Assembly: GCA_000990355.1 (NCBI GenBank)
Contig: LBSX01000005.1
Span: 4,584-68,583, forward strand
Source of the DNA: Candidatus Magasanikbacteria bacterium GW2011_GWC2_37_14
GTDB taxonomy: Bacteria; Patescibacteriota; Patescibacteriia; Magasanikbacterales; UBA922
Reading direction: 5' to 3'
Length of the DNA: 64,000 bases
Below, one piece after another: positions 9,789 through 59,707 of this stretch (the first letter of the stretch is position 1; every line of letters starts with the position of its first letter). The notes under the pieces are model-generated. The model saw only the letters and a program-made list of their open reading frames with translations. It was not told where the DNA came from and did no database searches. The position numbers and the translations under genes were made by a program.

Positions 9789-9860
9789 GCGTCCATAGCT
9801 CAGCGGTAGAGCACCACCCTTATAAGGTGGCCGTCGATGGTTCAAATCCATCTGGACGCA
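9789..9860 (+). tRNA. tRNA with anticodon UAU (putative tRNA-Ile, AUA-decoding)
   Basis: 72-nt cloverleaf folded by hand: 7-bp acceptor GCGTCCA/TGGACGC, anticodon stem CCACC/GGTGG, loop CTTATAA, T-loop TTCAAAT; no encoded CCA. Confidence 0.75.
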
Positions 9861-9868
9861 CATCTTTC

Positions 9869-12550: not shown

Positions 12551-12637
12551 GGAGGCGTGGCTGAGTGGTCGAAAGCACCGCATTCGAAACGCGGCAGACC
12601 TTTACCGGTCTCAGGGGTTCAAATCCTCTCGCCTCCG
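12551..12637 (+). tRNA. tRNA-Ser (anticodon CGA), class II with long variable arm
   Basis: acceptor GGAGGCG/CGCCTCC, anticodon loop TTCGAAA, long variable arm CAGACCTTTACCGGTCTCAGG, T-loop TTCAAAT. Confidence 0.75.
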
Positions 12638-12640
12638 CAT

Positions 12641-30349: not shown

Positions 30350-30377
30350 GTAGAGACGCAAAATTTTGCGTCTCTAC
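30350..30377. repeat. REP: 28-bp perfect palindrome GTAGAGACGCAAAATTTTGCGTCTCTAC (copy 1, just downstream of RAYT stop)
   Basis: perfect palindrome with 5' GTAG; 3 copies in window. Confidence 0.8.
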
Positions 30378-30389
30378 AGTGAAACGTTA

Positions 30390-30956
30390 TTATACCAACA
30401 ATCCCTCAGGATTATTTCTATCACGGTCCCACATTGAGGGATTATTGAAAATATATTGTTGAATATTGTGTAGCGAAATTTCGTCACGAATGATGTGGTC
30501 GTAAAATCGTGCTTGCCAGATGAATGAGACGTTGTTTGTTGTAGCCCATTTTGATACACCAATTTTAAATCCGCGAATAATTGATGATAAATTTTTGGAT
30601 TGTGGGCCAAATTTATTGTGGTAAAGTTTGTCGTTGTCGTGTAGAGACGCAAAATTTTGCGTCTCTACAATTGGCGGATTGTTGTTAATTATAATAATTC
30701 CATGTACATGATTTGGCATTATCACAAATTCGTCTAATGTTACAAACGGAAAATGTTTTGGTATTTCCAACCAATATTTTGTGGCCATTTTTCCAATATC
30801 ATTCAAAACAATTTCATCACCAACTATTTCACCAAAATAACAGAATTTATTTTTGGTGCAAATAGTTATAAAATAATAACCCGTTTGGCTATAGTCATAT
30901 CCAGCCAAACGGGTTGAAGGTATTAAAAATTTATTTCTAAATAAATTGTCGGTCAT
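30390..30956 (-). CDS. REP-associated tyrosine transposase (RAYT; IS200/IS605 Y1 HuH family)
   Basis: RLAGYDYSQTGYYFITICTK N-motif, HVHGII HuH motif, WQARFYDHIIRDE...YIFNNP C-terminal Tyr motif; contains REP copy in frame. Confidence 0.8.
   Translation of the reverse strand: MTDNLFRNKFLIPSTRLAGYDYSQTGYYFITICTKNKFCYFGEIVGDEIVLNDIGKMATKYWLEIPKHFPFVTLDEFVIMPNHVHGIIIINNNPPIVETQNFASLHDNDKLYHNKFGPQSKNLSSIIRGFKIGVSKWATTNNVSFIWQARFYDHIIRDEISLHNIQQYIFNNPSMWDRDRNNPEGLLV
30641..30668. repeat. REP copy 2, in frame inside RAYT CDS (encodes VETQNFASL)
   Basis: identical 28-bp palindrome. Confidence 0.8.
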
Positions 30957-35856: not shown

Positions 35857-35887
35857 AAAAAATCCTGATTAAAATCAGGATTTTTTA
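35857..35887. terminator. bidirectional terminator between convergent genes
   Basis: AAAAATCCTGATT-AAA-ATCAGGATTTTTT. Confidence 0.6.
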
Positions 35888-37101
35888 AATCTATAAATTT
35901 CTCGACCCAGATGTTGATTTGGTCGATGGTAGAGTAGAGACGCAAAATTTTGCGTCTCTACTCTAAATGGCATAATTTCAAAACCAATTTTTTTCAAATC
36001 TTTTTCCCAATTTATCGCTAACCAATCATTACCAATTTTAAATTTAGGGATAGCAATTACTATTACACCTTGTGGTTCCAGAATTTTGTAAAATTCTTGG
36101 CAAGCTTTTAAATAAAGACTTTTTAATTCAGTTAATTGTTTTTCTAATTGGTTTTTGTTTTCACGACCAGTTAAGGGTTTGCCCAGATAAGTCTCAGTAA
36201 CAATTAAAGTAACAGAATTGTTTTTTATTTTTTTAGTTAATTGAGTGGCGTCACTAATAATAAATTGGCAACCAATATTTTTAAGATTATATTTTTCTTT
36301 TAACCAAAGGAAATTTTTTTCACTGTCAACAACGGCTTTTTCCGAAATGTCAGCAGCAATTAAATTATTAAAATTCATGAGAGTGGCTTCATTTAATATT
36401 GTACCCGAGCCACAAAATGGGTCCAAGAGAATTTTGTTTTTAATCACCCCGGCGCCCTCGGCAACTCCCCCCGCCTGCCTTGACGGCATGTCGGGCAGGC
36501 CTGCCCCCTCTTGGTAAAAGGGGGATAAAGCGAGATTAATCATTATCTTGGCAAGCTTGGGCGGTAGCATGCCAGACAAGTCATCACTGTCTGGTCTTTG
36601 GTAGTCACGTTCAGCCATTTCTTCAAATGGCTGTAGAGCGGTCGTAACAAAAATTTGCTTATTGATTACTGTTAAATCCGATTTTTTCTCTACTAATTTG
36701 TTGTAAAGAATAGTAGCGGTATTTTTTGGCTCAATGTAGCGTACAGAATAACCGTTGGTTTTTAAAGCTTTTTTAAGTTCCAAAGCTAGTCTTTGATCAT
36801 TTAAAGAATATTCAATTTTACCAGTAGGGCAATTAGTTATTAAGTATTCTTGTAGGTGAGTTAACAACCCCCCTTCGCCCCCCTTTATTAAGGGGGGAAT
36901 TTCGGTAGCAATTTTTATAGTGCCACCCAGCTGTTTGATTAATTTTGCTGAATCTAGTTTTTTGTTGGTTTCAATTAATAAATATTGGTTGGAATTTTGT
37001 TTTAGGGTTTTAATATTTTTAAGTTTTAATGACGAAAAAACCGCCTGGATTTCGGCGGTGGAAATAAGAGGTTGGTGCCCTAATTGAAAAAGGAAATTCA
37101 T
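35875..37101 (-). CDS. UPF0020/THUMP-type RNA (guanine-N2) methyltransferase-like protein
   Basis: LDPFCGSGTILNEA SAM motif I; carries three in-frame repeat insertions (36447-36527, 36868-36897, REP at 35934-35961). Confidence 0.6.
   Translation of the reverse strand: MNFLFQLGHQPLISTAEIQAVFSSLKLKNIKTLKQNSNQYLLIETNKKLDSAKLIKQLGGTIKIATEIPPLIKGGEGGLLTHLQEYLITNCPTGKIEYSLNDQRLALELKKALKTNGYSVRYIEPKNTATILYNKLVEKKSDLTVINKQIFVTTALQPFEEMAERDYQRPDSDDLSGMLPPKLAKIMINLALSPFYQEGAGLPDMPSRQAGGVAEGAGVIKNKILLDPFCGSGTILNEATLMNFNNLIAADISEKAVVDSEKNFLWLKEKYNLKNIGCQFIISDATQLTKKIKNNSVTLIVTETYLGKPLTGRENKNQLEKQLTELKSLYLKACQEFYKILEPQGVIVIAIPKFKIGNDWLAINWEKDLKKIGFEIMPFRVETQNFASLLYHRPNQHLGREIYRFKKS
35934..35961. repeat. 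REP copy 3, forms in-frame 3' end of methyltransferase CDS (VETQNFASL...)
   Basis: identical 28-bp palindrome, extended palindrome TAGAGTAGAGACGC..GCGTCTCTACTCTA. Confidence 0.8.
36447..36527. repeat. GC-rich composite hairpin element, in frame in CDS (encodes ...QEGAGLPDMPSRQAGGVAEGAG...)
   Basis: about 47 bp (GGCCTGCCCGACATGCCGTCAAGGCAGGCGGGGGGAGTTGCCGAGG) shared in reverse orientation with 48451-48500. Confidence 0.7.
36868..36897. repeat. GC-rich hairpin CCCCCCTTTATTAAGGGGGG in frame in CDS (encodes IKGGEGGLL)
   Basis: perfect stem of 6-7 G:C pairs inside AT-rich coding sequence. Confidence 0.55.
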
Positions 37102-42559: not shown

Positions 42560-42689
42560 AAAAAGAAAGACTAGAGATTATTTATATAAATATTATAACA
42601 TATTTATAACAAAAAGGTTAGGAAGCAAGGTTGACAAAAAAGAATTTTTGGAGTAAAAATAACTTGAACCATCACCAAGTTAGGCAATC

Positions 42690-43013
42690 ATGGACGATCT
42701 CAAGAAATTCACCCTGGATGCTTCCACGTCGGAAGCGCTCGCGCAGTCGCTCGAGGCTCTCAACAATTTCTTGCTCGGACAGAGAGTCACCCGGCGACAC
42801 TCGGTCGCCCAGGCAGGCTGGCTCTTCAAGATCCTCTTGGAGTACAGGGACAGCCCCAGCGCCAACGGGCACCCCCAACTGGCTATTGCCCGGACACTGG
42901 AAGAAGCCCAGAAACACCGGGGGCTGGGGAAGTCGGTGGATCTCTATCTCCACCAGGCCACCCCCGCCAGCGAGGTCATGGAGTTCTACTTCGTCTGGCA
43001 CATCGTCCGCTAG
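42690..43013 (+). CDS. hypothetical 107-aa protein on a high-GC (about 60%) islet
   Basis: GC3-rich codon usage consistent with real coding in a high-GC donor; candidate TTGACA-17-TAAAAA promoter in adjacent AT-rich DNA. Confidence 0.4.
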   Translation: MDDLKKFTLDASTSEALAQSLEALNNFLLGQRVTRRHSVAQAGWLFKILLEYRDSPSANGHPQLAIARTLEEAQKHRGLGKSVDLYLHQATPASEVMEFYFVWHIVR

Positions 43014-43201
43014 GAGGACCACCATGGTTGCTCGTTCGCCGCCGTTCTTTCACCAAGGGGGAAGCCCCCGACTGCACGATACCGGAGGAACAGTCGGGAA
43101 CAGTCGAAAGATCATCTAGAAATAGGTGGTTTTTTGTTTTTATCTTACATTGACAATTAGGTAAAATTGTGATAAAATAATATTTCAGTTATTTATAAAA
43201 T

Positions 43202-44653
43202 ATGGCCGAAGAAGTAATTTTAAGATTTGATAATTTAACTTTTGGTTATGCCGAAAAAAAGCCAATCTTGGATGAGGTAGGTTTTGGTATACACAAAAAT
43301 GCTAAAATTACTTTAATGGGCCAAAATGGTGCGGGAAAAAGTACAATTTTTAAATTAATTAAAGGTGAATTAAAACCAACAAAAGGCAATGTTTTTATTA
43401 CCAATAATGCCACCATTGCCACTGCTTCTCAGGTAATTGGTCGTGAAGATCTTAATTTAACTTTGGCACAATATTTTTCCAAAGCTTTCACACCAGTGCC
43501 AGGAAATATTAAAAGCCAAATAAACAAAGTAATGATTGCGGTAAATTTGACTGTGCCCTTGGACAGAAAAGTAGGGGAATTATCGGGTGGGCAACAAGCA
43601 CGAATTTTATTAGCTTTTGCTTTAATCCAAAATCCCGATATTTTGTTATTGGATGAACCAACAAATAATTTGGATAAAGATGGCATTGATCATTTAATAC
43701 AATTTTTGGTAATGTACGAAAAAACCGTGTTGGTAATTTCTCATGATGCTGATTTTTTGAATTGTTTTACCGAAGGAGTAATTTATTTGGATGTTTTTAC
43801 CAAAAAAGTGGAAACTTATGTTGGTGATTATTATTCGGTAGTAGAAGAAATACAAAATCGTATTGAACGCGAAATAAAAAAGAATGCGCAATTGGAAAAA
43901 GAAATTTTGGACAACAAAGAAAAGGTAAACTTTTTTGCTCACAAAGGTGGCAAGATGCGCAAACTAGCTAGTAAATTAAAGGAAGAAGTACAAGAAATGG
44001 AAGAAAATAAAGTAGAAGTACGGCGTGAAGACAAAACTATTCGGGAATTTAGTATTCCAGCGCAGGGAATTGTGGGGGATATTGTAACTATCAAATCGGT
44101 AAAAATAATTAAAAATCATGAACCAGTGGTAAAAGAAGTAGAGATTGTTTTACGACAAAAAGACAGGCTTTTGATTTCTGGACCAAACGGCATTGGCAAG
44201 AGTACACTACTCCGAAATTTGGTAAATAAAGAAAGTGAGGGCGCAACTATTTTGGAAAATACGCGCGTGGGTTATTATAGTCAAGATTTTGCTACCTTGG
44301 ATTATGAGCAAACTGTATTTGATTCTTTGCAAAGTGTTTTGGCCGATGGACTAGACATCCAGCAAATGCGCGCAATTGCTGCGGGTTTTTTGATTACCGG
44401 TGAACTAATGGGTTTAAAAATTTCGCATTTATCCGAAGGACAAAAAGGTTTGTTGTCTTTTGCTCGTTTGGTATCCATGAAACCTGGCCTTTTGATTTTG
44501 GATGAGCCAACTAACCATATTAATTTTCGTCATATACAAATAATTGCCCAGGCGATAAATAATTTTGAGGGAGCAATTATTTTGATTAGTCATATGCCAG
44601 ATTTTGTAAAAGAGATTAAATTTAACCAAGAATTGGATTTGGGCAGGTTTTAA
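43202..44653 (+). CDS. ABC-F family ATPase (tandem ABC domains)
   Basis: two Walker A (GQNGAGKST, GPNGIGKST) and two LSGGQ signatures, no TM domain. Confidence 0.85.
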   Translation: MAEEVILRFDNLTFGYAEKKPILDEVGFGIHKNAKITLMGQNGAGKSTIFKLIKGELKPTKGNVFITNNATIATASQVIGREDLNLTLAQYFSKAFTPVPGNIKSQINKVMIAVNLTVPLDRKVGELSGGQQARILLAFALIQNPDILLLDEPTNNLDKDGIDHLIQFLVMYEKTVLVISHDADFLNCFTEGVIYLDVFTKKVETYVGDYYSVVEEIQNRIEREIKKNAQLEKEILDNKEKVNFFAHKGGKMRKLASKLKEEVQEMEENKVEVRREDKTIREFSIPAQGIVGDIVTIKSVKIIKNHEPVVKEVEIVLRQKDRLLISGPNGIGKSTLLRNLVNKESEGATILENTRVGYYSQDFATLDYEQTVFDSLQSVLADGLDIQQMRAIAAGFLITGELMGLKISHLSEGQKGLLSFARLVSMKPGLLILDEPTNHINFRHIQIIAQAINNFEGAIILISHMPDFVKEIKFNQELDLGRF

Positions 44654-44683
44654 TTGTTTTGTAAAAATTAGTTATAAGTTATT

Positions 44684-45097
44684 ATGTCTCTAGTTTTTAA
44701 AAAACAAATTCCCGAATCAGAAATTAAATTTACTTTTGCCCGGTCATCTGGCGCGGGTGGGCAAAATGTAAATAAAACTTCTACCAAAGTTGTTTTGCGT
44801 TGGCAAGTGGGCAACTCAGCAGTTTTTAATTATGCCGAAAAAAATAGAATCAGAAACAAATTAGTTGGCCGATTAAATAGTCTTGATGAAATAGTTATCA
44901 CAGCAGAAGAAGAAAGATCACAAATTCAAAATCGTCTTCAAGCTATTGCTCGTTTGCAAACATTGGTAAATATTGCCTTACTCGTACCCAAAAAACGTCG
45001 GCCAACCAAACCAACTTATTCTTCCAAACTCAAAAGATTGGCAGGCAAAAAACAACATTCCAAACTTAAAGAAGGAAGACGGGTGGTGGGGGAATAG
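44684..45097 (+). CDS. arfB: peptidyl-tRNA hydrolase ArfB (GGQ-domain ribosome rescue factor)
   Basis: SSGAGGQNVNK GGQ motif, basic C-terminal tail. Confidence 0.8.
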   Translation: MSLVFKKQIPESEIKFTFARSSGAGGQNVNKTSTKVVLRWQVGNSAVFNYAEKNRIRNKLVGRLNSLDEIVITAEEERSQIQNRLQAIARLQTLVNIALLVPKKRRPTKPTYSSKLKRLAGKKQHSKLKEGRRVVGE

Positions 45098-45142
45098 CAG
45101 AGTGGAGCGGAATGTGATAGAATGTAAGAAAAAGAATGTTTT

Positions 45143-46852
45143 ATGCTTCAAGAAACAGCATTAGAAATTTTAAAAACCGGTGCCAATGTTTTTTTAACGG
45201 GTGAGCCAGGCTCGGGCAAAACACATACCATTAATCGGTATGTTTCTTATTTGCGTGCACGAGGAATTGAGCCAGCCGTTACCGCTTCTACGGGCATTGC
45301 GGCCACGCATTTGGGTGGCATGACCATTCATTCTTGGAGCGGGCTGGGAATTAAAACCAGATTAAGCAAATACGAATTAGACAAGTTGGCTTTTACTGAA
45401 TATTTAAATAAACGCATTAGCCGAGCTAAAGTTTTGATTATTGACGAAATTTCTATGCTTGGGCCAGAAATGGTGGCTACAGTAGAGGCAGTTTGCCGAG
45501 AAATAAAAGATAACACCTTGCCTTTTGGGGGACTGCAAGTTATTTTTGTGGGTGATTTTTTTCAATTGCCACCAGTGGTGAGAAATAAAGAAAATAATGA
45601 CGAACAAGAAAAATTGTTTAATGAACCAAAGTCACGTTTTGCTTTTCATTCTTCGGTTTGGAACCAAGCTAATTTATTTATTTGTTATTTAACCGAACAA
45701 TTTCGTCAAGATGATGATAAATTTTTGGAAGTTTTGTCGGCTATTCGGCATAATGTTTTTAATGATCAACATTTACAGCATTTAATTAAACGTCAGACCG
45801 AAGCACACCTGGCGCCAAAAGGCGTACCGAAATTATTTTCACACAATGTGAATGTAGATAAAGTAAATGAAGAAGAATTGGCAAAAATTTCTGGAGAAGA
45901 AAAAGAATTTATTGCTCATTCATATGGAGCTAGGCCCTTGGTAGAAACTTTGCAAAAAGGTTGTTTGTCGCCCGAACGACTTTGTTTAAAAATTGGGGCA
46001 GTAGTAATGTTTACCAAAAATAATTTGCGTGAAGGTTTTGTAAATGGTACTTTGGGTCGTGTGGAAAGTTTTGGTAAGGGCAGTAACCAGCCAATTGTGC
46101 GCACTAAAGATGGCAAAAGAATTGAAGTAACACCAATGGATTGGACGATTGAAGAAAATGGACGTCTTAAAGCGTCAATTACTCAATTTCCTTTACGTTT
46201 GGCTTGGGCCATTACTGTACACAAAAGCCAAGGCATGAGTTTGGATGAAGCAGTAATGGATTTGAGTGCTGTTTTTGAATATGGCCAGGGTTATGTGGCC
46301 TTGTCGCGTGTGCGTCGTTTAACAGGTCTACATCTTTTGGGTTGGAATGAGCAAACTTTTCAAGTGCACCCCGAAGTTTTACTTAAAGATAAGGCAATGC
46401 GTTTGGATTCCGAGGTAATAGAAAATGCTTTTATTAGTATGTTACCCGAAGAATTAAAAACTATGCAAAGAAATTTTATTTTGGCTTCGGGAGGCAGAGA
46501 AAATGCAGAAGAGATAACAGAAAAAGTTAAAAAAAATAATAAAAAAGGAGAGACGCACAATGAAACATTAAAATTATGGCAGAGTGGCAAAAAAATTGCC
46601 GAAATTGCCAAAGAACGTGGGCTTACGGAACAAACAATTTTAAGTCACATTGAAAAATTAGTTACAAAAGGAAAGATTAATCGAGCAGATTTAAAATCAT
46701 TAATTTCCGCACCATTATTGCACGCTTTGCCACGTATTCAAGAAGTTTTTGCGAAATTGGGTACAGAAAAATTAGCCCCAGTTTTTGCCAGGTTTGGTGG
46801 AGAGTATTCTTACAATGATTTGCGTTTGGCTAGGATGATGTCTGAAAGGTAG
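45143..46852 (+). CDS. PIF1/RecD-like SF1B DNA helicase with C-terminal HTH
   Basis: GEPGSGKTH Walker A, VLIIDEISM Walker B, VHKSQGMS motif. Confidence 0.75.
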   Translation: MLQETALEILKTGANVFLTGEPGSGKTHTINRYVSYLRARGIEPAVTASTGIAATHLGGMTIHSWSGLGIKTRLSKYELDKLAFTEYLNKRISRAKVLIIDEISMLGPEMVATVEAVCREIKDNTLPFGGLQVIFVGDFFQLPPVVRNKENNDEQEKLFNEPKSRFAFHSSVWNQANLFICYLTEQFRQDDDKFLEVLSAIRHNVFNDQHLQHLIKRQTEAHLAPKGVPKLFSHNVNVDKVNEEELAKISGEEKEFIAHSYGARPLVETLQKGCLSPERLCLKIGAVVMFTKNNLREGFVNGTLGRVESFGKGSNQPIVRTKDGKRIEVTPMDWTIEENGRLKASITQFPLRLAWAITVHKSQGMSLDEAVMDLSAVFEYGQGYVALSRVRRLTGLHLLGWNEQTFQVHPEVLLKDKAMRLDSEVIENAFISMLPEELKTMQRNFILASGGRENAEEITEKVKKNNKKGETHNETLKLWQSGKKIAEIAKERGLTEQTILSHIEKLVTKGKINRADLKSLISAPLLHALPRIQEVFAKLGTEKLAPVFARFGGEYSYNDLRLARMMSER

Positions 46853-46873
46853 ACAAAAGCGATGTTTAGGGGG

Positions 46874-46904
46874 TTGACAGATTCATTTTATTTTGTTATT
46901 ATAA
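46874..46904 (+). promoter_or_regulatory. sigma70-like promoter TTGACA-17-TATTAT(AAT) upstream of rpsF
   Basis: consensus -35 and -10. Confidence 0.5.
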
Positions 46905-46970
46905 TGAAGCTCCAGAAGCAAATTTTATAAGTCCTGGTCGATCGGGACAAAGAAATTTTTTAAGTAAATT

Positions 46971-47552
46971 ATGAAAAAATACGAATTATTAGTTGTTTTT
47001 CCAGGTACTTTGGCAGAAAATGAAGTAAATGCCGAGGCGGAAAAAGTAAAAGCTGTGGTAACCGAAAATGGCGGTGTTGAATTTGAGATGGGCGAAATAG
47101 AAAAAAGACGTTTAGCTTATCCTATTAAACACATTCGTTATGGTTATTTTCAATTAGCCTTTTTTTCGGCTGATACTGTACAAGTAAAAATCATTGAAAA
47201 TAAATTTCGTTTGATGTCCGAATTATTACGAGCAGTAATAAGACAGCAAAATGTTAAAGCAAACAAAAAAATTAATTTTGGTGCTTTGATAATTGGCGAA
47301 GACAACAAGCGATCAGAAACTGAAAATGAACCAATACATTACAATCAGCCAGTTGCTTCTGTAGTAACAGAAGAAAAGGTGGTGCAAGAAGAAAAGAAAG
47401 TAGAAGTAATTGTTTCCGAAGAACAACAAAAATTAGCAGCAGCTCCAGTAAAAAAAGCTAGTGCCAAAAAAGAAGAAAAGAAAAAAATTAATTTGGATGA
47501 TATTGATAAAAAATTGGATGAGATTTTGGACATTGGTTTGGATAATGTATAA
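46971..47552 (+). CDS. rpsF: 30S ribosomal protein S6 with long acidic/basic C-terminal extension
   Basis: MKKYELLVVFPG S6 N-terminus; rpsF-ssb-rpsR order. Confidence 0.85.
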   Translation: MKKYELLVVFPGTLAENEVNAEAEKVKAVVTENGGVEFEMGEIEKRRLAYPIKHIRYGYFQLAFFSADTVQVKIIENKFRLMSELLRAVIRQQNVKANKKINFGALIIGEDNKRSETENEPIHYNQPVASVVTEEKVVQEEKKVEVIVSEEQQKLAAAPVKKASAKKEEKKKINLDDIDKKLDEILDIGLDNV

Positions 47553-47581
47553 TAATTACCGTAATTATTAATTTAAAATAT

Positions 47582-48034
47582 ATGGATTTGAATAGAGCAA
47601 CTATTCTCGGGCGTTTGACCCGCGATCCAGAATTAAAAACTACTCCCAACGGAAAGAGTGTGGCCACTATTGGCCTAGCTACCAATAGAGTTTGGACAAA
47701 TGCTGGCACTGGCGCCAAAGAAGAAAAAACTGAATTCCATAATTGTGTGCTTTGGGGTAAATTAGCCGAGATTGCTGGTCAATATTTAAGCAAAGGACGT
47801 CGTTTGTATGTGGAAGGAAGATTGGAAACCAGAGATTGGACAGGTCAGGACGGTGTAAAACGTTATCGTACCGAAATTGTGGTAGATAATATGATTATGC
47901 TTGACGGTCCACGCGGGACCGAAACCGGTAATCGCCCAGTTGCCAAAGTAGATTATTCAGAACCAGCTTTGCCAACTATTTCTGCCGATGAAGTAGTAGA
48001 AGAAGAAATTAAAGTTGAAGATATTCCATTTTAA
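47582..48034 (+). CDS. ssb: single-stranded DNA-binding protein
   Basis: OB fold motifs, acidic C-terminal DIPF tail. Confidence 0.9.
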   Translation: MDLNRATILGRLTRDPELKTTPNGKSVATIGLATNRVWTNAGTGAKEEKTEFHNCVLWGKLAEIAGQYLSKGRRLYVEGRLETRDWTGQDGVKRYRTEIVVDNMIMLDGPRGTETGNRPVAKVDYSEPALPTISADEVVEEEIKVEDIPF

Positions 48035-48039
48035 AAATT

Positions 48040-48279
48040 ATGATGTACAACAATAACAAAGAAAATGCAAAACCCATAGTAAGATATTGTCATTATTGTG
48101 TAAATAAACAAACAGCAGTAGATTACAAAGATGTACAATTATTACGTCGTTTTGTTTCCTCTTATTTAAAGATTGCTCCTCAACGTCGCAGTGGTTTGTG
48201 TGCACTCCACCAACGTAAAGTTGCTAATGCTATTAAACAAGCTAGAGTTGCTGGTTTAATGGGATTTGTGTCGAAGTAA
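48040..48279 (+). CDS. rpsR: 30S ribosomal protein S18
   Basis: CHYCVNK...DYKDVQLLRRFVS S18 signature. Confidence 0.9.
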   Translation: MMYNNNKENAKPIVRYCHYCVNKQTAVDYKDVQLLRRFVSSYLKIAPQRRSGLCALHQRKVANAIKQARVAGLMGFVSK

Positions 48280-48300
48280 AGTTTATAAAGTCTATAAAGT

Positions 48301-48336
48301 AAAACCGTCCCGCAACCTGCGGGACGGTTTTTTTCT
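48301..48336 (+). terminator. rho-independent terminator after rpsR
   Basis: AAAACCGTCCCGC-AACC-TGCGGGACGGTTTTTTT. Confidence 0.7.
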
Positions 48337-48565
48337 CCCCCTACAAGGGGAGGATTACGAAATGTGTTTGTGTGCGCGTGAACGAGTGATTGAACGTCGT
48401 CGCTGTCCCCCTCTTTCCCAACCTGCCTGCCGGTAGGCAGGGAGGGGGTAGGCCTGCCCGACATGCCGTCAAGGCAGGCGGGGGGAGTTTGCCGAGGCTT
48501 GCACAAACTCCGGCAACTCCACCGTCCGCCCTGGGCGGGCACCTCCTCTTGGTAAGAGGAGGATT
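48336..48565. repeat. array of GC-rich hairpin modules (includes CTCCCCCTACAAGGGGAGGATTACGAA and the GGCCTGCCCGACATGCCGTCAAGGCAGGCGGGG module)
   Basis: modules shared with 36447-36527 (reverse orientation) and 57763-57790. Confidence 0.7.
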
Positions 48566-48600
48566 AAAAAACACTCCGCTAATTAGCAGAGTGTTTTATA
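48566..48600 (-). terminator. hairpin plus T-run, candidate terminator for minus-strand lipoprotein gene
   Basis: AAAACACTCCGC-TAATTA-GCAGAGTGTTTTAT. Confidence 0.35.
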
Positions 48601-48720
48601 TTAACCCTCGGTTCTCCACAACACACTTATCTAAATATAAATGTATTCTGGAGATCGGAACCGAGGGTTCAGTGCCGATCATCCTTGGGGGGTGGTCGGC
48701 CGGGAGTGGCCTGGTGGGGT

Positions 48721-49101
48721 TCAACGCCCGCAGTTGAAGAGCTTGTGACTGCAGTTGGGGGTGGGGTCGCAGACATCACCACTACCGTCCTTGTCGACGT
48801 CGGTCTGGTCCGAGTTTGGTTTCTCGGGGCAGTTGTCGCAGACGTCGCCCACACCGTCCTTGTCGAAGTCGCGTTGGTCGTGGTTGAAGGTCCGCACCAA
48901 TGGGCAGTTGTCGATGCGGTCGGGGATGTTGTCCCCATCCACGTCGGAGTTGCGTTCGGCTTCGGCGGCCGACTGCTTCTGTCCGGCCTGGTAGTCTTCC
49001 CAGGCCTTCTCTCTGTCGGACGCTGGCCCACGCATCATGAGGACACAGCCTGAGAGATTTAGCACCATCGCCCACAGGGCGATAAGGATCATGCGGTTCA
49101 T
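48721..49101 (-). CDS. lipoprotein with thrombospondin type-3 (calcium-binding) repeats, on high-GC islet
   Basis: lipobox LNLSGC, three DxDxDGxxDxxDNC TSP3 repeats; GC about 60%, GC3-rich codons. Confidence 0.6.
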
Positions 49102-49263
49102 GATTGCCTTTCAGCCCCAATGGGGCAGTGGTTAACCGCTTATTTTAGCAAAAAATTTGGCTAAATTAAGCGATTTACAACTATAAAAATATTTTATATA
49201 CTAACGGCGTATTATAGCACAAATTTGCCTTTTTGTCAAGAAGGTGTTATCCACTCCTTTAAT

Positions 49264-56744: not shown

Positions 56745-56781
56745 AAAATCGTCCCAAATTAGTTGGGACGATTTTTTTATT
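56745..56781 (+). terminator. rho-independent terminator after rpoC
   Basis: AAAATCGTCCCAA-ATTA-GTTGGGACGATTTTTTTATT. Confidence 0.7.
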
Positions 56782-56883
56782 ATACTCACGTACTAGCGTA
56801 CTAGTACAGTAGTGCGTTTGTTAAGACAAAATACTTTTGGGAAGGGGGGACACAGAACTGCGTCCCCAGAGGAGGGAAGTGAA

Positions 56884-57525
56884 CTACCGGAAGAGTACGC
56901 ACCGCGGGGGCACGATCAGGCTGGCGGGGTTGACACCGTCCCAGCTGATCAGTCCCTGGAGCACCATGTTTGTCATGTGCGACTGCCACGCCCGTTCGAC
57001 TTCGTTGACGCGCTTGGCCAAGGAGTCGGGGGTGTCGTCATCGCGGATCAAGACCGGGTAGTGGAAGAAGACCGGTCCTCGGTCGAATTCTTCGGTGACG
57101 AAGTGCATGCAGACCGCGCTGGCGGTCAGCTCGCCTTGGTGGAAGGTGGCCATCACGGCTTCGTGCACGTGGTGGCCGTACATGCCCGGACCGCCGTACT
57201 TGTACAACGGACCGGGGTGGATGTTGATGGTCTTCTTGGGGTCGAGACCCCTGACCAACTTCAGCCAGCCGGACAGCGCGACGAGGTCGGGCTGGAAGGC
57301 GTCGACGAGAAGCTGATATTGGTCTACCGACCAGGGTGCGGGCATGTGAACGAATTTGACGCCCAATTTTTCGGCGCGTCGTTCTACACCACCACCTCGC
57401 ACGTTGGAAACTACGGCCACGATGTCCGCCTGGAGAACTCCGGTGCGGGAATTCTCCACGAGTTCTTGGAAGCCAGAGCCTCCACCCTCCCTGGAACCCG
57501 AAGCGAATACGAGAATCCTTTTCAT
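56884..57525 (-). CDS. PurN-like formyltransferase (stand-alone formyl_trans_N domain, 213 aa) on high-GC islet
   Basis: MKRILVFASGS N-terminus, NIHPGPLYKYGG and HFVTEEFDRGPV motifs of GAR formyltransferase family; GC about 60%; start set at MKRIL (track ORF starts upstream). Confidence 0.7.
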   Translation of the reverse strand: MKRILVFASGSREGGGSGFQELVENSRTGVLQADIVAVVSNVRGGGVERRAEKLGVKFVHMPAPWSVDQYQLLVDAFQPDLVALSGWLKLVRGLDPKKTINIHPGPLYKYGGPGMYGHHVHEAVMATFHQGELTASAVCMHFVTEEFDRGPVFFHYPVLIRDDDTPDSLAKRVNEVERAWQSHMTNMVLQGLISWDGVNPASLIVPPRCVLFR

Positions 57526-57626
57526 GTCTGAGCCTTTCTGGTTGTTGTTCACCACTCCCAAAAATATTTTGTAAATAACTAAACTATTGGTTAGCTTAGC
57601 GCTAAATATGGGAATTGTCAATGGTA

Positions 57627-57790
57627 TTCCCCCTTAGAAAAGGGGGAATAAGGGGGTTGTTGGTAAACCCTCCCCTTGTAGGGGAGGTACCCCGAGTATA
57701 CGGGGTGGTGGGGTTCGTAGTTCTAACATGAACCCCCACCCTCCGACTGCGACGTCGGAGGACTCCCCCTACGAGGGGGAGGATTACGAA
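57627..57790. repeat. array of six consecutive GC-rich hairpins (TTCCCCCTTAGAAAAGGGGGAA, CCCTCCCCTTGTAGGGGAGG, CCCCGAGTATACGGGG, GGTGGGGGTTCG..GAACCCCCACC, CTCCGACTGCGACGTCGGAG, CTCCCCCTACGAGGGGGAGGATTACGAA)
   Basis: last module nearly identical to 48336-48362; CCCCGAG..CGGGG module matches 12646-12664. Confidence 0.7.
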
Positions 57791-57796
57791 CTTTTT

Positions 57797-58255
57797 TTAA
57801 ATAATAAACCTATATCGACATTTTTTTCTGTCGCCATTTAAGTACTGGTCATTGTGTTTTGGTAGATCAACAATTTCTATTAGTTTACCACCGGCCAATT
57901 CGCAAGTTTTTCTGGAAGCAAGATTGTTTGTATCGCAGGTTATATAAATTTCGTTTAAATTGTGTTTTTTGGCAAAAGGTAATAATAATTTAATACTTCT
58001 GGCTGCATAATGATGACCTCTAAATTTTTCTTTTACCCCATAACCAATATGTCCACCATAAAAAATATTTTCATTATTGCCAATTCTTAAGTGTATAAGA
58101 CCCATGCATTCACTGGTACTGGAGTTTTTCATTTCAAAATTATAGGCTGGAACATATTTTTTTTCTTCGTTTGCAGGAATTTTTTTTACCAATATTAACT
58201 CCAACTCATTATCAATTAGTTTACCAGGACTTAGGAATTTAAAAATATTTTTCAT
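57797..58255 (-). CDS. GNAT family N-acetyltransferase
   Basis: HIGYGVKEKFRGHHYAARSIKLLLPFA acetyltransferase core. Confidence 0.55.
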   Translation of the reverse strand: MKNIFKFLSPGKLIDNELELILVKKIPANEEKKYVPAYNFEMKNSSTSECMGLIHLRIGNNENIFYGGHIGYGVKEKFRGHHYAARSIKLLLPFAKKHNLNEIYITCDTNNLASRKTCELAGGKLIEIVDLPKHNDQYLNGDRKKCRYRFII

Positions 58256-59094: not shown

Positions 59095-59205
59095 TTGTAA
59101 TTTTCAATTTACAATAATCAATTTACAATAAATTTTCAATGAGATAATTTTCATTGATAATTTGTAAATTGAAAATTTGTTGAAAATTGTAAATTGATAA
59201 TTGAT
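59095..59205. repeat. about 110-bp imperfect palindrome built from CAATTTACAAT units in yebC-ruvC spacer
   Basis: left arm TTTCAATTTACAATAATCAATTTACAATAAATTTTCAATGA mirrors right arm TCATTGATAATTTGTAAATTGAAAATTTGTTGAAAATTGTAAATTG. Confidence 0.6.
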
Positions 59206-59707
59206 TATTATGTCAAACAACAAAGGTAAAGAGCGTGTTTTAGGAATTGATCCAGGGTTCGGTAGAACTGGTTTTGGGGTAATTGAAAAAATAAATGGCG
59301 TTTGGAAAGTTTTGGGTTATGGTTGTATCGAAACTCCCAAGACTGATGATTATTCTTTAAGATTATTAGAACTTAGTAAATGTTTAAAACAAATTATAAA
59401 AAAGTATCAGCCGGCAAAAGCGGGGGTAGAGGATTTGTTTTTTTATAACAATGCCAAAACCGCAATAAAAGTCGGTCAGGCTAGGGGTGTAGTCCTCTTA
59501 ACTTTGGCCGAAGCAAATATTCCGGTTTGGGAATTTACCCCGCTACAAGTAAAACAAACTATTACGGGTTATGGTAAAGCCGAAAAATCAGCCATGCAAA
59601 AAATGGTGCAAAAATTGTTTGGTTTAACCAAGAAAATTACCCCCGATGATGCGGCCGATGCCTTGGCAGTTGCCCTAACAACTGCAGGGTGCTTAAAACT
59701 TAAATAA
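59201..59707 (+). CDS. ruvC: crossover junction endodeoxyribonuclease RuvC
   Basis: VLGIDPGFGRTGFGVIE N-terminus, conserved acidic residues. Confidence 0.9.
   Translation: MIIMSNNKGKERVLGIDPGFGRTGFGVIEKINGVWKVLGYGCIETPKTDDYSLRLLELSKCLKQIIKKYQPAKAGVEDLFFYNNAKTAIKVGQARGVVLLTLAEANIPVWEFTPLQVKQTITGYGKAEKSAMQKMVQKLFGLTKKITPDDAADALAVALTTAGCLKLK

Follow-up and report, generated by a model that had tools for sequence, protein, structure and literature searches.

In Neisseria, differing whole-gene cassettes that lie between conserved flanking genes and are exchanged by transformation are known as minimal mobile elements. Horizontal transfer of single genes, nucleotide-metabolism genes included, has been documented among Patescibacteria, and CPR bacteria are generally reported to be without nucleotide biosynthesis (PMC12455944). 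The literature gave no account in CPR of palindromic repeats of the type described below, and nothing relevant on purine synthesis in Magasanikbacteria. We analysed a stretch of 64,000 nucleotides (hereafter the window) of the AT-rich genome of Candidatus Magasanikbacteria bacterium GW2011_GWC2_37_14, in which an intact gene for a formyltransferase lies downstream of rpoC in a short GC-rich islet (Table 1). Our preferred reading, to which we assign a probability of roughly 60%, is that the islet is a horizontally acquired and still un-ameliorated PurN gene of CPR/DPANN type, i.e. one for a 10-formyl-THF-dependent glycinamide-ribonucleotide (GAR) formyltransferase.

The islet is real and holds an intact gene with foreign, GC-rich codon usage. 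The GC fraction of the CDS is 0.61, with 0.64, 0.40 and 0.78 at the first, second and third codon positions, whereas GC3 of the 54 native ORFs is 0.26 ± 0.044 and nowhere above 0.40, which places the formyltransferase at z = 11.7. Also, 76% of its two-fold codons end in G or C as against 13-23% in native genes. An initial annotation made from the letters alone had described a high-GC islet of about 60% in a 35% backbone; for 56835-57800 we obtained 56.9%, and the higher figure holds for the CDS together with its terminator hairpin (56835-57525, 60.5%). It had missed the AT-rich gap that splits the CDS from the hairpin array. The ORF lies on the minus strand. The 213-aa product with the motifs NIHPGPLYKYGG and HFVTEEFDRGPV, the GC3-rich codons, the rpoC terminator and short repeat as limits on the left and the six GC-rich hairpins on the right are all present as it had reported. 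Two further single-gene GC-rich islets of similar kind lie in the window.

Table 1. Positions in the window of the formyltransferase, its flanking elements and the related islets and hairpin arrays.
Feature	Position	Strand	Evidence or remark
Second high-GC islet, 'hypA', 107-aa orphan, GC3 0.81	42690-43013	+	pilB slot
GC-rich hairpin array of the rpsR-rpoB slot	48326-48570		Sequence shared with 57765-57795 and 36463-36510
3' hairpin module of the rpsR-rpoB slot	48593-48712		Matches L169/L174 at 88-95% identity as far as the stop codons
Third high-GC islet, 126-aa lipoprotein with thrombospondin type-3 repeats, GC3 0.81	48721-49101	-	
Intrinsic terminator of rpoC with a 13-bp stem and a T-run behind it	56745-56775	+	Spacer 39% identical in the sister species, not conserved
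CGTACTAG direct repeat (CGTACTAG-CGTACTAG) overlapping a 10-bp palindrome GTACTAGTAC	56787-56810		
Left inverted-repeat arm, 27 nt, 3'UTR of the minus-strand mRNA	56826-56852		81% complementary to 57546-57572
GC-rich hairpin just past the stop codon, GGGGACGCA-GUUC-UGUGUCCCC	56845-56868	-	Fold; conserved in L089
Formyltransferase CDS, divergent PurN / GAR-transformylase type, 213 aa	56884-57525	-	Pfam, composition, fold, alignments
AT-rich (35% GC) 5'UTR and promoter-like region	57526-57628	-	Read from sequence
Array of six GC-rich hairpins, 58.6% GC	57629-57790		Fold z = -6.7 (minus strand), -5.2 (plus strand)
GNAT acetyltransferase, native composition (GC3 0.23)	57797-58255	-	84% identity to the L089 copy; missing in L090 and further relatives

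Genes of this protein family usually match their neighbours (median GC3 difference of 0.00 over 39 loci), and the copy in the window is therefore alien to its surroundings. On regression over 45 family loci, its GC3 lies at z = +5.9 above the expectation for a host of 36% GC, implying a background of about 64% GC, while its FYMINK value (z = -2.6) implies about 58% and GC at codon positions 1+2 (z = +2.4) about 50%. Judged from codon and amino-acid composition, the source genome would have had about 58-64% GC and carried the same protein family, and it most likely belonged to another CPR-like organism rather than to an actinobacterial host. Of the transfer from a high-GC donor put forward in the initial annotation, the foreign composition stands, while the actinobacterial host falls: it finds no support among 2883 homologs or 596 genomic loci. 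The close homologs are 60-69% identical and all of Patescibacteria/DPANN type, the best matches (66-69%) being from CPR. In the neighbour-joining tree the window copy pairs with the syntenic gene from a CPR sister species (L089), with low-GC CPR genes (L081 and L083) next, so that the nearest neighbours are not the high-GC taxa for which a phylogeny had been proposed as a check. No donor-like sequence of more than 69% identity was found among 5.8 billion proteins, which, like the low GC of L081 and L083, counts against our preferred reading. No high-GC close relative was found, and a query with the miscalled antisense ORF of the locus brought up no hidden closer relatives. A phage origin was rejected, with no relative in 2.9 million viral contigs (IMG/VR). 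The islet showed neither a mobility gene nor a target-site duplication, which likewise speaks against our preferred reading.

The age of the insertion can be read from the sister species (L089/L169), where the gene order is the same as in the window, i.e. rpoC, formyltransferase, hairpins, GNAT and yebC. RpoC is 94%, GNAT 84% and YebC 91% identical between the two species, and the formyltransferase protein 64%. In L090 and at least 10 other relatives rpoC lies directly before yebC at a distance of 80-430 bp, i.e. the slot is empty, and the formyltransferase locus is thus patchy; in the window lineage the GNAT gene and the formyltransferase together occupy this gap. Because the sister slot holds a formyltransferase of 64% protein identity with flank identity at the native level, it would already have been filled when the species diverged, which speaks against a recent event. 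The gene would then be an old, retained horizontal acquisition. The CDS itself is 65% identical to L089 at the nucleotide level as against 83-87% for the non-coding flanks, with a sharp drop in identity at the stop codon, and this counts against our preferred reading. Likewise dS and dN of the formyltransferase (1.65 and 0.29) exceed those of native genes in the same comparison (0.4-0.9 and 0.03-0.09). The dN/dS ratio against the sister-species copy is 0.175, and since the CDS stays under purifying selection the enzyme appears to be used. The two copies have 11 rare residues in common. GC3 of the L089 copy is 0.54, and the G/C losses inferred at third positions number 20 in the window lineage vs. 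71 in L089; because this loss is very asymmetric, a single ancient transfer with passive amelioration fits poorly.

As a course of events we propose that one lineage of Ca. Magasanikbacteria gained an intergenic slot between rpoC and yebC and that the CPR-like source genome may have supplied the gene to it. The gene would form a self-contained minus-strand unit of a native-looking AT-rich promoter and 5'UTR, a GC-rich CDS and a GC-rich terminator hairpin, and the common ancestor with L089/L169 would already have carried it in the slot. The CDS would since have evolved, or been exchanged, far faster than the backbone while under purifying selection.

In the AT-rich region ahead of the CDS the promoter-like hexamers TTGACA (57621-57616) and TAAGCT (57598-57593) are separated by 17 nt, and the formyltransferase would probably be expressed from this site. 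A consensus scan did not report it because the -10 hexamer matches at only 3/6 positions. Within the same region lie a Shine-Dalgarno-like GAAAGG and, at 57546-57572, the right arm of the inverted repeat, and the region is 86.7% identical to L089, both hexamers included; the 3' flank of the CDS is 83.5% identical. The hairpin just past the stop codon is likely a terminator or stabiliser of the formyltransferase mRNA. The inverted repeat brackets the CDS, and both arms are kept in L089 (17 nt, 94%). Its core occurs with 0 mismatches at just the two arm sites in the window, and in both the MFE and the centroid fold of the mRNA (fold z = -6.1) the arms form an 18-bp closing stem between 5'UTR and 3'UTR. 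As a general cassette end the inverted repeat was rejected, as it is found only in the window genome and L089 and not in 45 other family loci. The short repeat near the rpoC terminator is partly kept in L089 (GTACTACTGTACTAGTACACTAGTAC) and absent from the empty site of L090. A search of the flanks and hairpins for known RNA families gave nothing near gathering scores.

The six-hairpin array had been taken as the edge of the transferred DNA, and this finds no support. Positions 57663-57790 are one copy of a dispersed multi-hairpin repeat of about 128 nt with the inverted termini GTAAACCCTCCCC...GGGGAGGATTAC, which is found in other slots and in relatives. This copy is 87.5-89% identical to the one in the rpsR-rpoB slot of a sister genome, with two compensatory stem changes. 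Related elements were found with model R1 in L089, L169, L112/115, L128-130 and L140, and copies in other slots and genomes show 87-92% identity and fold z values of -4 to -8.5. In the window, the array of the rpsR-rpoB slot has the CTCCCCCTACRAGGGG(G)AGGATTACGAA hairpin in common with 57765-57795 and a 48-nt segment in common with 36463-36510. No target-site duplication or cognate transposase (e.g. RAYT) was noticed for the array in the window. We suggest that the array would be a separate copy of a MITE-like repeat, outside the transferred gene.

The other two islets raise the question of exchange. At the pilB slot, hypA has a conserved, GC-rich and structured 3' flank that reaches to about 43120, and the slot holds an allele of 77% identity in L173 and one of 45% in L174, both GC3-rich. 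A donor search for hypA found only these two sister-genome alleles, and one for the lipoprotein found same-population variants only, apart from an irrelevant eukaryotic thrombospondin match. In place of the lipoprotein, the rpsR-rpoB slot of a sister genome holds an unrelated 152-aa GC-rich ORF, and the 3' module is retained beside these unrelated cassettes. Both islets combine conserved flanks with an invariably GC3-rich CDS that, from one sister genome to another, is either hyper-divergent or exchanged for a different one. Features like those of minimal mobile elements were found in the slots, with a whole-gene difference in the rpsR-rpoB slot (slot B) and the rpoC slot filled in L089 and empty in L090. 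The three GC-rich CDSs might come from a putative pool of short accessory genes that related Magasanikbacteria swap at fixed slots by natural transformation and recombination in the flanks, the present formyltransferase being a later replacement of an ancestral one. The 88-95% identical 3' module beside unrelated genes, the divergent pilB-slot alleles, the fall in identity at the formyltransferase stop codon, the type IV pilus genes PilB/C/M/N within the window and the lack of an integrase or transposase nearby all speak for such exchange. Yet the two formyltransferases are sisters in the neighbour-joining tree, if with weak support, and their shared rare residues fit vertical descent; the conserved flanks extend over no more than about 100 nt, and exchange alone does not explain why the cassettes are uniformly GC3-rich. 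On balance we hold replacement by exchange to be unlikely, while giving it serious weight. Three CDS-restricted GC-rich islets within 15 kb present a compact and tractable case of the uptake and retention of foreign genes in very small genomes.

Acquisition of a PurN gene, as we prefer to read the islet, depends also on the identity of the protein. PF00551 spans residues 2-180 (E = 1.8e-16) with no second domain and no Formyl_trans_C, in keeping with the earlier description of a protein with Formyl_trans_N only. All 17 of the 17 PDB sequence matches are PurN. For the AF2 model (pLDDT 91), Foldseek ranks 1-28 in the PDB are all GAR transformylases (TMq 0.68-0.79), and ArnA and Fmt appear at rank 41 or lower. 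The catalytic Asn-His-Asp triad is kept (N101-I-H103-P and H-F-V-T-E-E-F-D148, corresponding to E. coli N106, H108 and D144); this region aligns with NIHPS and HxVTxxxD of PDB 4ds3 and is invariant in 27 family members, and the formyltransferase retains 45 invariant family columns, the triad among them. The PurN-type assignment of the initial annotation is thus upheld by Pfam, PDB matches, fold and triad, and the sugar N-formyltransferase that it had offered instead is not. A sugar-nucleotide enzyme of ArnA-N or WlaRD type is further disfavoured by the absence of an extra domain and by the neighbours, which are rpoC, GNAT and yebC. We conclude that the protein is a divergent PurN, with GAR as its probable substrate.

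The enzyme might nevertheless have as its substrate a sugar nucleotide or some other small amine, or it might be a relic without a pathway. Its score against the NCBIfam PurN equivalog TIGR00639 is 74 bits and lies below the 150.1-bit cut-off, PurN still being the best-scoring family (PurU 35.8, Fmt 20.9 bits). The P-loop of the family (GGGSGF) is also atypical and a GGxGMYGHH segment is inserted, pur genes are missing beside the nearest homologs (L081, L083 and L085), and no purL or purM relative or other pur gene lies within the 64-kb window; the general report on nucleotide biosynthesis in CPR cited above points the same way. Against this stand the sequence and fold matches to GAR transformylases, the lack of any added domain, the purifying selection and the gene neighbourhoods of the family, in which purL and/or purM adjoin the homologs in about 12 of 47 loci (the order in L084 is purM-formyltransferase-purL). 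A substrate other than GAR therefore appears rather improbable. A constrained and retained PurN in a supposedly salvage-dependent lineage bears on the purine-synthesis capacity of episymbiont-like bacteria.

Whether the high GC3 is a relic of the donor, as our preferred reading has it, is a separate matter. That divergent alleles should keep GC-rich synonymous codons is a real, if minor, puzzle. In a broader view the lineage would keep fixed slots (pilB, rpsR/rpoB and rpoC) with conserved promoter and hairpin flanks and short genes of fast turnover, in which G/C-ending codons (about 3-6 times the native level) are actively maintained. We regard this as quite doubtful; if true, the 'HGT islets' called in CPR from composition would partly be a distinct, previously undescribed gene class that gene callers systematically miss. 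The GC3 component on its own, i.e. that selection on codons or mRNA structure or a local GC-biased process holds GC3 high in place, we consider very improbable. It is favoured by the hypA allele of the sister genome, in which GC12 is native-like (0.38) yet GC3 is 0.75 and 68% of two-fold codons end in G or C (13-23% in native genes), by GC3 values of 0.54-0.81 for alleles in all three slots despite 23-55% protein divergence, and by several single-gene islets in low-GC relatives with GC12 low for their GC3. The strongly folded formyltransferase mRNA, whose 18-bp closing stem is kept in L089, also agrees with it. But alleles differ at third positions mainly by S<->W changes, the pattern expected if GC3 had decayed from about 0.9 in an ancestor, the L089 copy has already come down to 0.54, the amino-acid composition of the window copy is also of high-GC type, and the argument draws on few short genes. 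We know of no mechanism for in-place maintenance of GC3 of this kind. Pure GC-biased gene conversion is an unlikely cause, given that the 5'UTR separating CDS and hairpins is still at 35% GC. GC islands of the relatives were checked as rRNA or tRNA and are neither.

The last alternative, an assembly chimera or contamination of the bin with high-GC DNA, is suggested by the abrupt shift in composition and by the miscalling of all three islets by gene callers, but it is effectively refuted because three independent assemblies agree (contigs from MEGAHIT (ENA), JGI and Logan match 38040-58279 or 43890-48471 of the window at 100% identity, over 20 kb and with all junctions included) and sister genomes share the slot architecture with related, non-identical sequence; also, the islets lie inside the contig, flanked by syntenic housekeeping genes. 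At the level of assembled sequence the junctions thus favour an authentic islet. The public annotation can be corrected accordingly: GenBank KKQ27834.1 (US42_C0005G0059, 'hypothetical protein') is an antisense ORF of the intact purN-type gene, which lies on the opposite strand of that locus. The ORFs of the other two islets are likewise mis-called in the assemblies examined, and therefore metabolic reconstructions of such CPR genomes may under-count foreign genes.

Compared with described PurN enzymes (E. coli 1CDE/1GAR, the human GART domain 4ZYV and TIGR00639), the formyltransferase has the same single Formyl_trans_N domain of about 210 aa, the same triad in NIHP...HxVT..xD.GP, its best structural matches at TM 0.77-0.82 and, for some members of its family, a purM-purN-purL neighbourhood. 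It differs in being just 22-28% identical to the solved PurNs and below the equivalog cut-off, in the phosphate loop and insertion of its family, and in being isolated, foreign in composition and unannotated in GW2011_GWC2_37_14. The purN auxiliary metabolic genes of cyanophages (phrog_9240, E = 1e-17, the sole PHROG match) also lie outside a pur operon, but here there are no phage genes near the formyltransferase and no IMG/VR relative. Like MITE, REP and Rickettsia palindromic elements, the hairpin repeats are short, non-coding, multi-copy and self-complementary with inverted termini, and they are intergenic with one member apparently in frame inside an ORF, the methyltransferase at 35875-37101; unlike these, they are GC-rich in an AT-rich genome and contain several nested hairpins. 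Integron cassettes with attC hairpins resemble the islets in their small size, in holding one gene each and, for slot B, in the conserved structured element 3' of unrelated ORFs. The window units differ from them in having no integrase, attI or tandem array, in carrying their own predicted promoters and in 3' modules that are mutually unrelated among the three slots; an integron origin was rejected, with no recombinase in the ORF list of the window and the units single and dispersed. With the minimal mobile elements of Neisseria the slots share conserved flanks, differing or divergent genes, the absence of mobility genes and the presence of type IV pilus genes. Unlike those elements, the cassettes of the window share GC3-rich codons, their flanks include short regulatory modules beyond genes alone, and any exchange is here putative. 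The single genes and small islands of groundwater Patescibacteria (PMC12455944) are similar in single-gene gain, in donors that are mostly Patescibacteria and in compositional deviation as the signal, whereas in the window the deviation is extreme (GC3 +0.52) and restricted to the CDS, the islets sit in three fixed slots within 15 kb, and the one with the formyltransferase predates a species split.

The formyltransferase islet between rpoC and yebC is confirmed as GC-rich, and its interpretation in the initial annotation proved right in part. The span 56835-57800 has 56.9% GC, against 36.1% for the window overall, and is not uniform along its length, with an AT-rich stretch between the coding sequence and the hairpin array (see table). 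The rpoC terminator, the short repeat and the six GC-rich hairpins described as its boundaries were all found. The ORF of 213 aa has both motifs quoted there, and Formyl_trans_N is the sole Pfam domain found. GC1/2/3 are 0.64/0.40/0.78, with C alone making up 50% of third codon positions. For the window's 54 native ORFs GC3 is 0.26 +/- 0.044 (maximum 0.40), so the formyltransferase lies about 12 sd away. Exact matching of the neighbouring S18 protein brought up contigs from ENA (MEGAHIT), JGI and Logan. Each is a 100% match to window 38040-58279 (20,240 nt) or 43890-48471, and all islet junctions are covered, which effectively rules out an assembly artefact. In these records an opposite-strand 239-aa ORF is called in place of the formyltransferase (GenBank KKQ27834.1, US42_C0005G0059, 'hypothetical protein', Candidatus Magasanikbacteria bacterium GW2011_GWC2_37_14). 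Because the gene callers chose this antisense ORF, the true protein is missing from protein collections, and the finding yields a useful annotation correction. Public calls are in the wrong strand or frame in all three GC-rich islets of the window; their real genes are therefore absent from protein databases.

To judge from its sequence and predicted fold, the protein is a divergent PurN, most probably with GAR transformylase as its predicted activity. PurN ranked top in NCBIfam at 74 bits (under the 150.1-bit equivalog cut-off), and 17 of 17 PDB sequence matches were PurN. An AlphaFold model built with 27 homologs (pLDDT 91) had GAR transformylases as its best 28 Foldseek matches in the PDB (TM 0.7-0.8), with PurU, Fmt and ArnA ranking below them, so that the suggested sugar N-formyltransferase is not supported. 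The N-H-D triad and 45 invariant family columns are kept. The family (2883 protein-search matches, 596 genomic loci) is typically carried by Patescibacteria and DPANN, and also by some Thermodesulfobacteriota-labelled MAGs. In one genomic locus, L084, a purM-like gene and purL flank the formyltransferase; tblastn with these two proteins placed purL and/or purM beside it at about 12 of the 47 loci of the family and found neither in the window.

Across 39 family loci, formyltransferase GC3 as a rule matches that of the adjacent genes (median difference 0.00); an excess of +0.13 to +0.20 occurs in a few hosts of low GC, and the window shows +0.52. When gene properties are regressed on host GC over 45 family loci, the window gene deviates in GC3 (z = +5.9, implying about 64% GC), FYMINK content (z = -2.6, about 58%) and GC12 (z = +2.4, about 50%). 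The amino-acid composition thus bears a higher-GC imprint too, which supports transfer from a GC-rich background, as had been proposed. An actinobacterial donor is not borne out: the best matches (66-69% identical) come from CPR-type contexts and none points to Actinobacteria. Nor are the nearest neighbours high-GC, the closest homologs (L081, L083) having native low GC and a GC3 of 0.36-0.43. No relative was found on viral contigs, and the miscalled antisense ORF as query gave no further ones.

Scanning metagenomes with the C-terminus of RpoC identified a sister species, represented by L089 (which shares its contig with L170) and by a second contig, of which L169 and L174 are two stretches. 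Its gene order matches the window: rpoC, formyltransferase (minus strand), hairpins, GNAT, yebC. Protein identity is 94% for RpoC, 91% for YebC and 84% for GNAT; in the formyltransferase unit the 3' flank (83.5%, nt) and promoter/5'UTR (86.7%, nt) bracket a CDS of 65% (64% as protein), identity falling sharply at the stop codon. In L090, whose RpoC C-terminus is 89% identical, and at least 10 more relatives, yebC follows rpoC within 80-430 bp. The formyltransferase-hairpin-GNAT block is therefore an insertion older than the split of the two sister species, and not a recent acquisition. The L089 formyltransferase (P0025; GC3 0.54 vs native 0.25) has 11 rare residues in common with that of the window, and the two are sisters in a neighbour-joining tree (long branches, no bootstrap). 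Between them dS is 1.65, dN 0.29 and dN/dS 0.175; backbone genes have dS 0.4-0.9 and dN 0.03-0.09. Faster mutation of G/C third positions under AT pressure can be part of the cause of this excess divergence, but does not explain the asymmetry of inferred third-position G/C losses, 20 in the window lineage against 71 in L089.

On the minus strand the unit begins with a promoter-like TTGACA-17-TAAGCT (both hexamers kept in L089), followed by an AT-rich 5'UTR. GAAAGG and the ATG come next; the CDS closes with TAG, and a GC-rich hairpin follows. An inverted repeat brackets the CDS in the window and L089, and was not found at other family loci. In the predicted fold of the mRNA (overall z-score -6.1) its arms pair as an 18-bp closing stem; the repeat could serve mRNA closure or be left over from the ends of an old element.

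The hairpin array (fold z-scores -6.7 and -5.2) does not mark the boundary of transferred DNA as had been suggested, since copies occur elsewhere. Its segment 57663-57790, with inverted termini, matches a copy in the sister genome's rpsR-rpoB slot at 87-89% identity, with two compensatory stem changes, and the L089 array has 200 nt at 92% identity in common with that slot. A covariance model found related 120-150-nt nested-palindrome elements in L089, L169, L112/115, L128-130 and L140, frequently right downstream of rpoC (e.g. in the distant relatives L129, L130 and L140). They behave like MITE/REP-type repeats. A methyltransferase gene contains, in frame, another GC-rich hairpin element, which contributes about 27 aa (SPFYQEGAGLPDMPSRQAGGVAEGAGV) directly before motif I (DPFCGSG); in the window sequence it resembles Rickettsia palindromic elements. 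The perfect palindrome GTAGAGACGCAAAATTTTGCGTCTCTAC is another dispersed family, REP/terminator-like. Further palindromic repeats, such as GTCATTCCTGCGCAGGCAGGAATCCAGAAATC, are abundant in the sister genomes, which also have the module TTGTGTGCGCGTGAACGAGTGAT in common with the window.

Coordinates of the features discussed (window unless a locus is named)
Feature	Position	Strand	Remark
tRNA-Ile (anticodon TAT)	9789-9861		beside tRNA-Arg(CCG); decodes ATA directly
tRNA-Ser(CGA)	12551-12638
28-nt palindrome	30350-30377; 30641-30668; 35934-35961		three copies
SAM-dependent methyltransferase	35875-37101	-	408 aa
In-frame hairpin element	36440-36530
Its 48-nt core	36463-36510		98% reverse-complementary to 48442-48489
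Islet A (hypA)	42690-43013, flank to ~43120	+	107-aa orphan; GC3 0.81; between pilB and ABC-F gene
Public call, islet A	42631-43119	+
ABC-F ATPase	43202-44653
RF-1/ArfB-like gene	44684-45097
Module TTGTGTGCGCGTGAACGAGTGAT	48366-48390
Islet B	48721-49101 (with 48326-48712)	-	126-aa TSP3-repeat lipoprotein; GC3 0.81; between rpsR and rpoB
Public call, islet B	48782-49120	-
rpoC terminator	56745-56775
CGTACTAG/GTACTAGTAC repeat	56787-56810
Public call, formyltransferase islet	56812-57531	+
CDS-bracketing inverted repeat	56826-56852 / 57546-57572		27 nt
Terminator hairpin + CDS	56835-57525		60.5% GC
Formyltransferase ORF	56884-57525	-
AT-rich stretch	57526-57628		35% GC
Hairpin array	57629-57790		58.6% GC
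Array segment	57663-57790
Inverted repeat in yebC-ruvC spacer	59098-59210		56 nt, AT-rich, imperfect (73% complementary), with adjacent arms
GC3-rich single genes	L093 6886-7515; L102 17295-18089; L108 345-827; L124 12578-13069; L121 2243-2683; L012 3030-3449
Repeat-rich sites	L089 7900-8380; L169 8900-9120, 9830-10250; L090 944-975, 1075-1125

The window holds two further islets of this kind, A and B. The islet A slot has an allele 77% identical in L173 (GC3 0.76) and 45% identical in L174 (GC3 0.75, native-like GC12 of 0.38), PilB being 91% identical in both. Both sister contigs lack the ABC-F ATPase, and L173 lacks the RF-1/ArfB-like gene (the two genes span 43202-45097), so the pilB-PIF1 interval is variable for native-composition genes too. 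The islet B lipoprotein has a lipobox (LSGC) and thrombospondin type-3 Ca-binding repeats; a repeat-unit indel and a frameshift distinguish its population variants P0121 and P0122. In the sister genome the slot is occupied by an unrelated GC-rich ORF of 152 aa, and the 3' hairpin module next to it is 88-95% identical to that of islet B. Isolated GC3-rich (0.66-0.87) single genes also occur in other low-GC CPR relatives, most of them orphans or genes for small secreted proteins that match nothing in Pfam or PHROG; the one in L093 occupies the same rpoC-yebC gap. Thus the formyltransferase islet is one case of a recurrent feature of these genomes, in which conserved flanks enclose CDSs that turn over fast or are swapped, always with GC3-rich codon usage. 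At third positions alleles differ mainly by S<->W changes, which is consistent with decay from a GC3 of about 0.9 in the ancestor. The L174 hypA allele departs from this, its GC3 having stayed at 0.75 with an amino-acid composition like that of native genes. From the tRNA-Arg(CCG) and tRNA-Ser(CGA) genes in the window, the genome encodes tRNAs for some G-ending codons. In their pattern of conserved flanks and fast-turning or swapped CDSs the islets resemble the minimal mobile elements of Neisseria. Single-gene HGT in Patescibacteria is already known (PMC12455944), and the formyltransferase islet belongs to it, adding the modest puzzle of GC-rich codons that persist in the CDS only.
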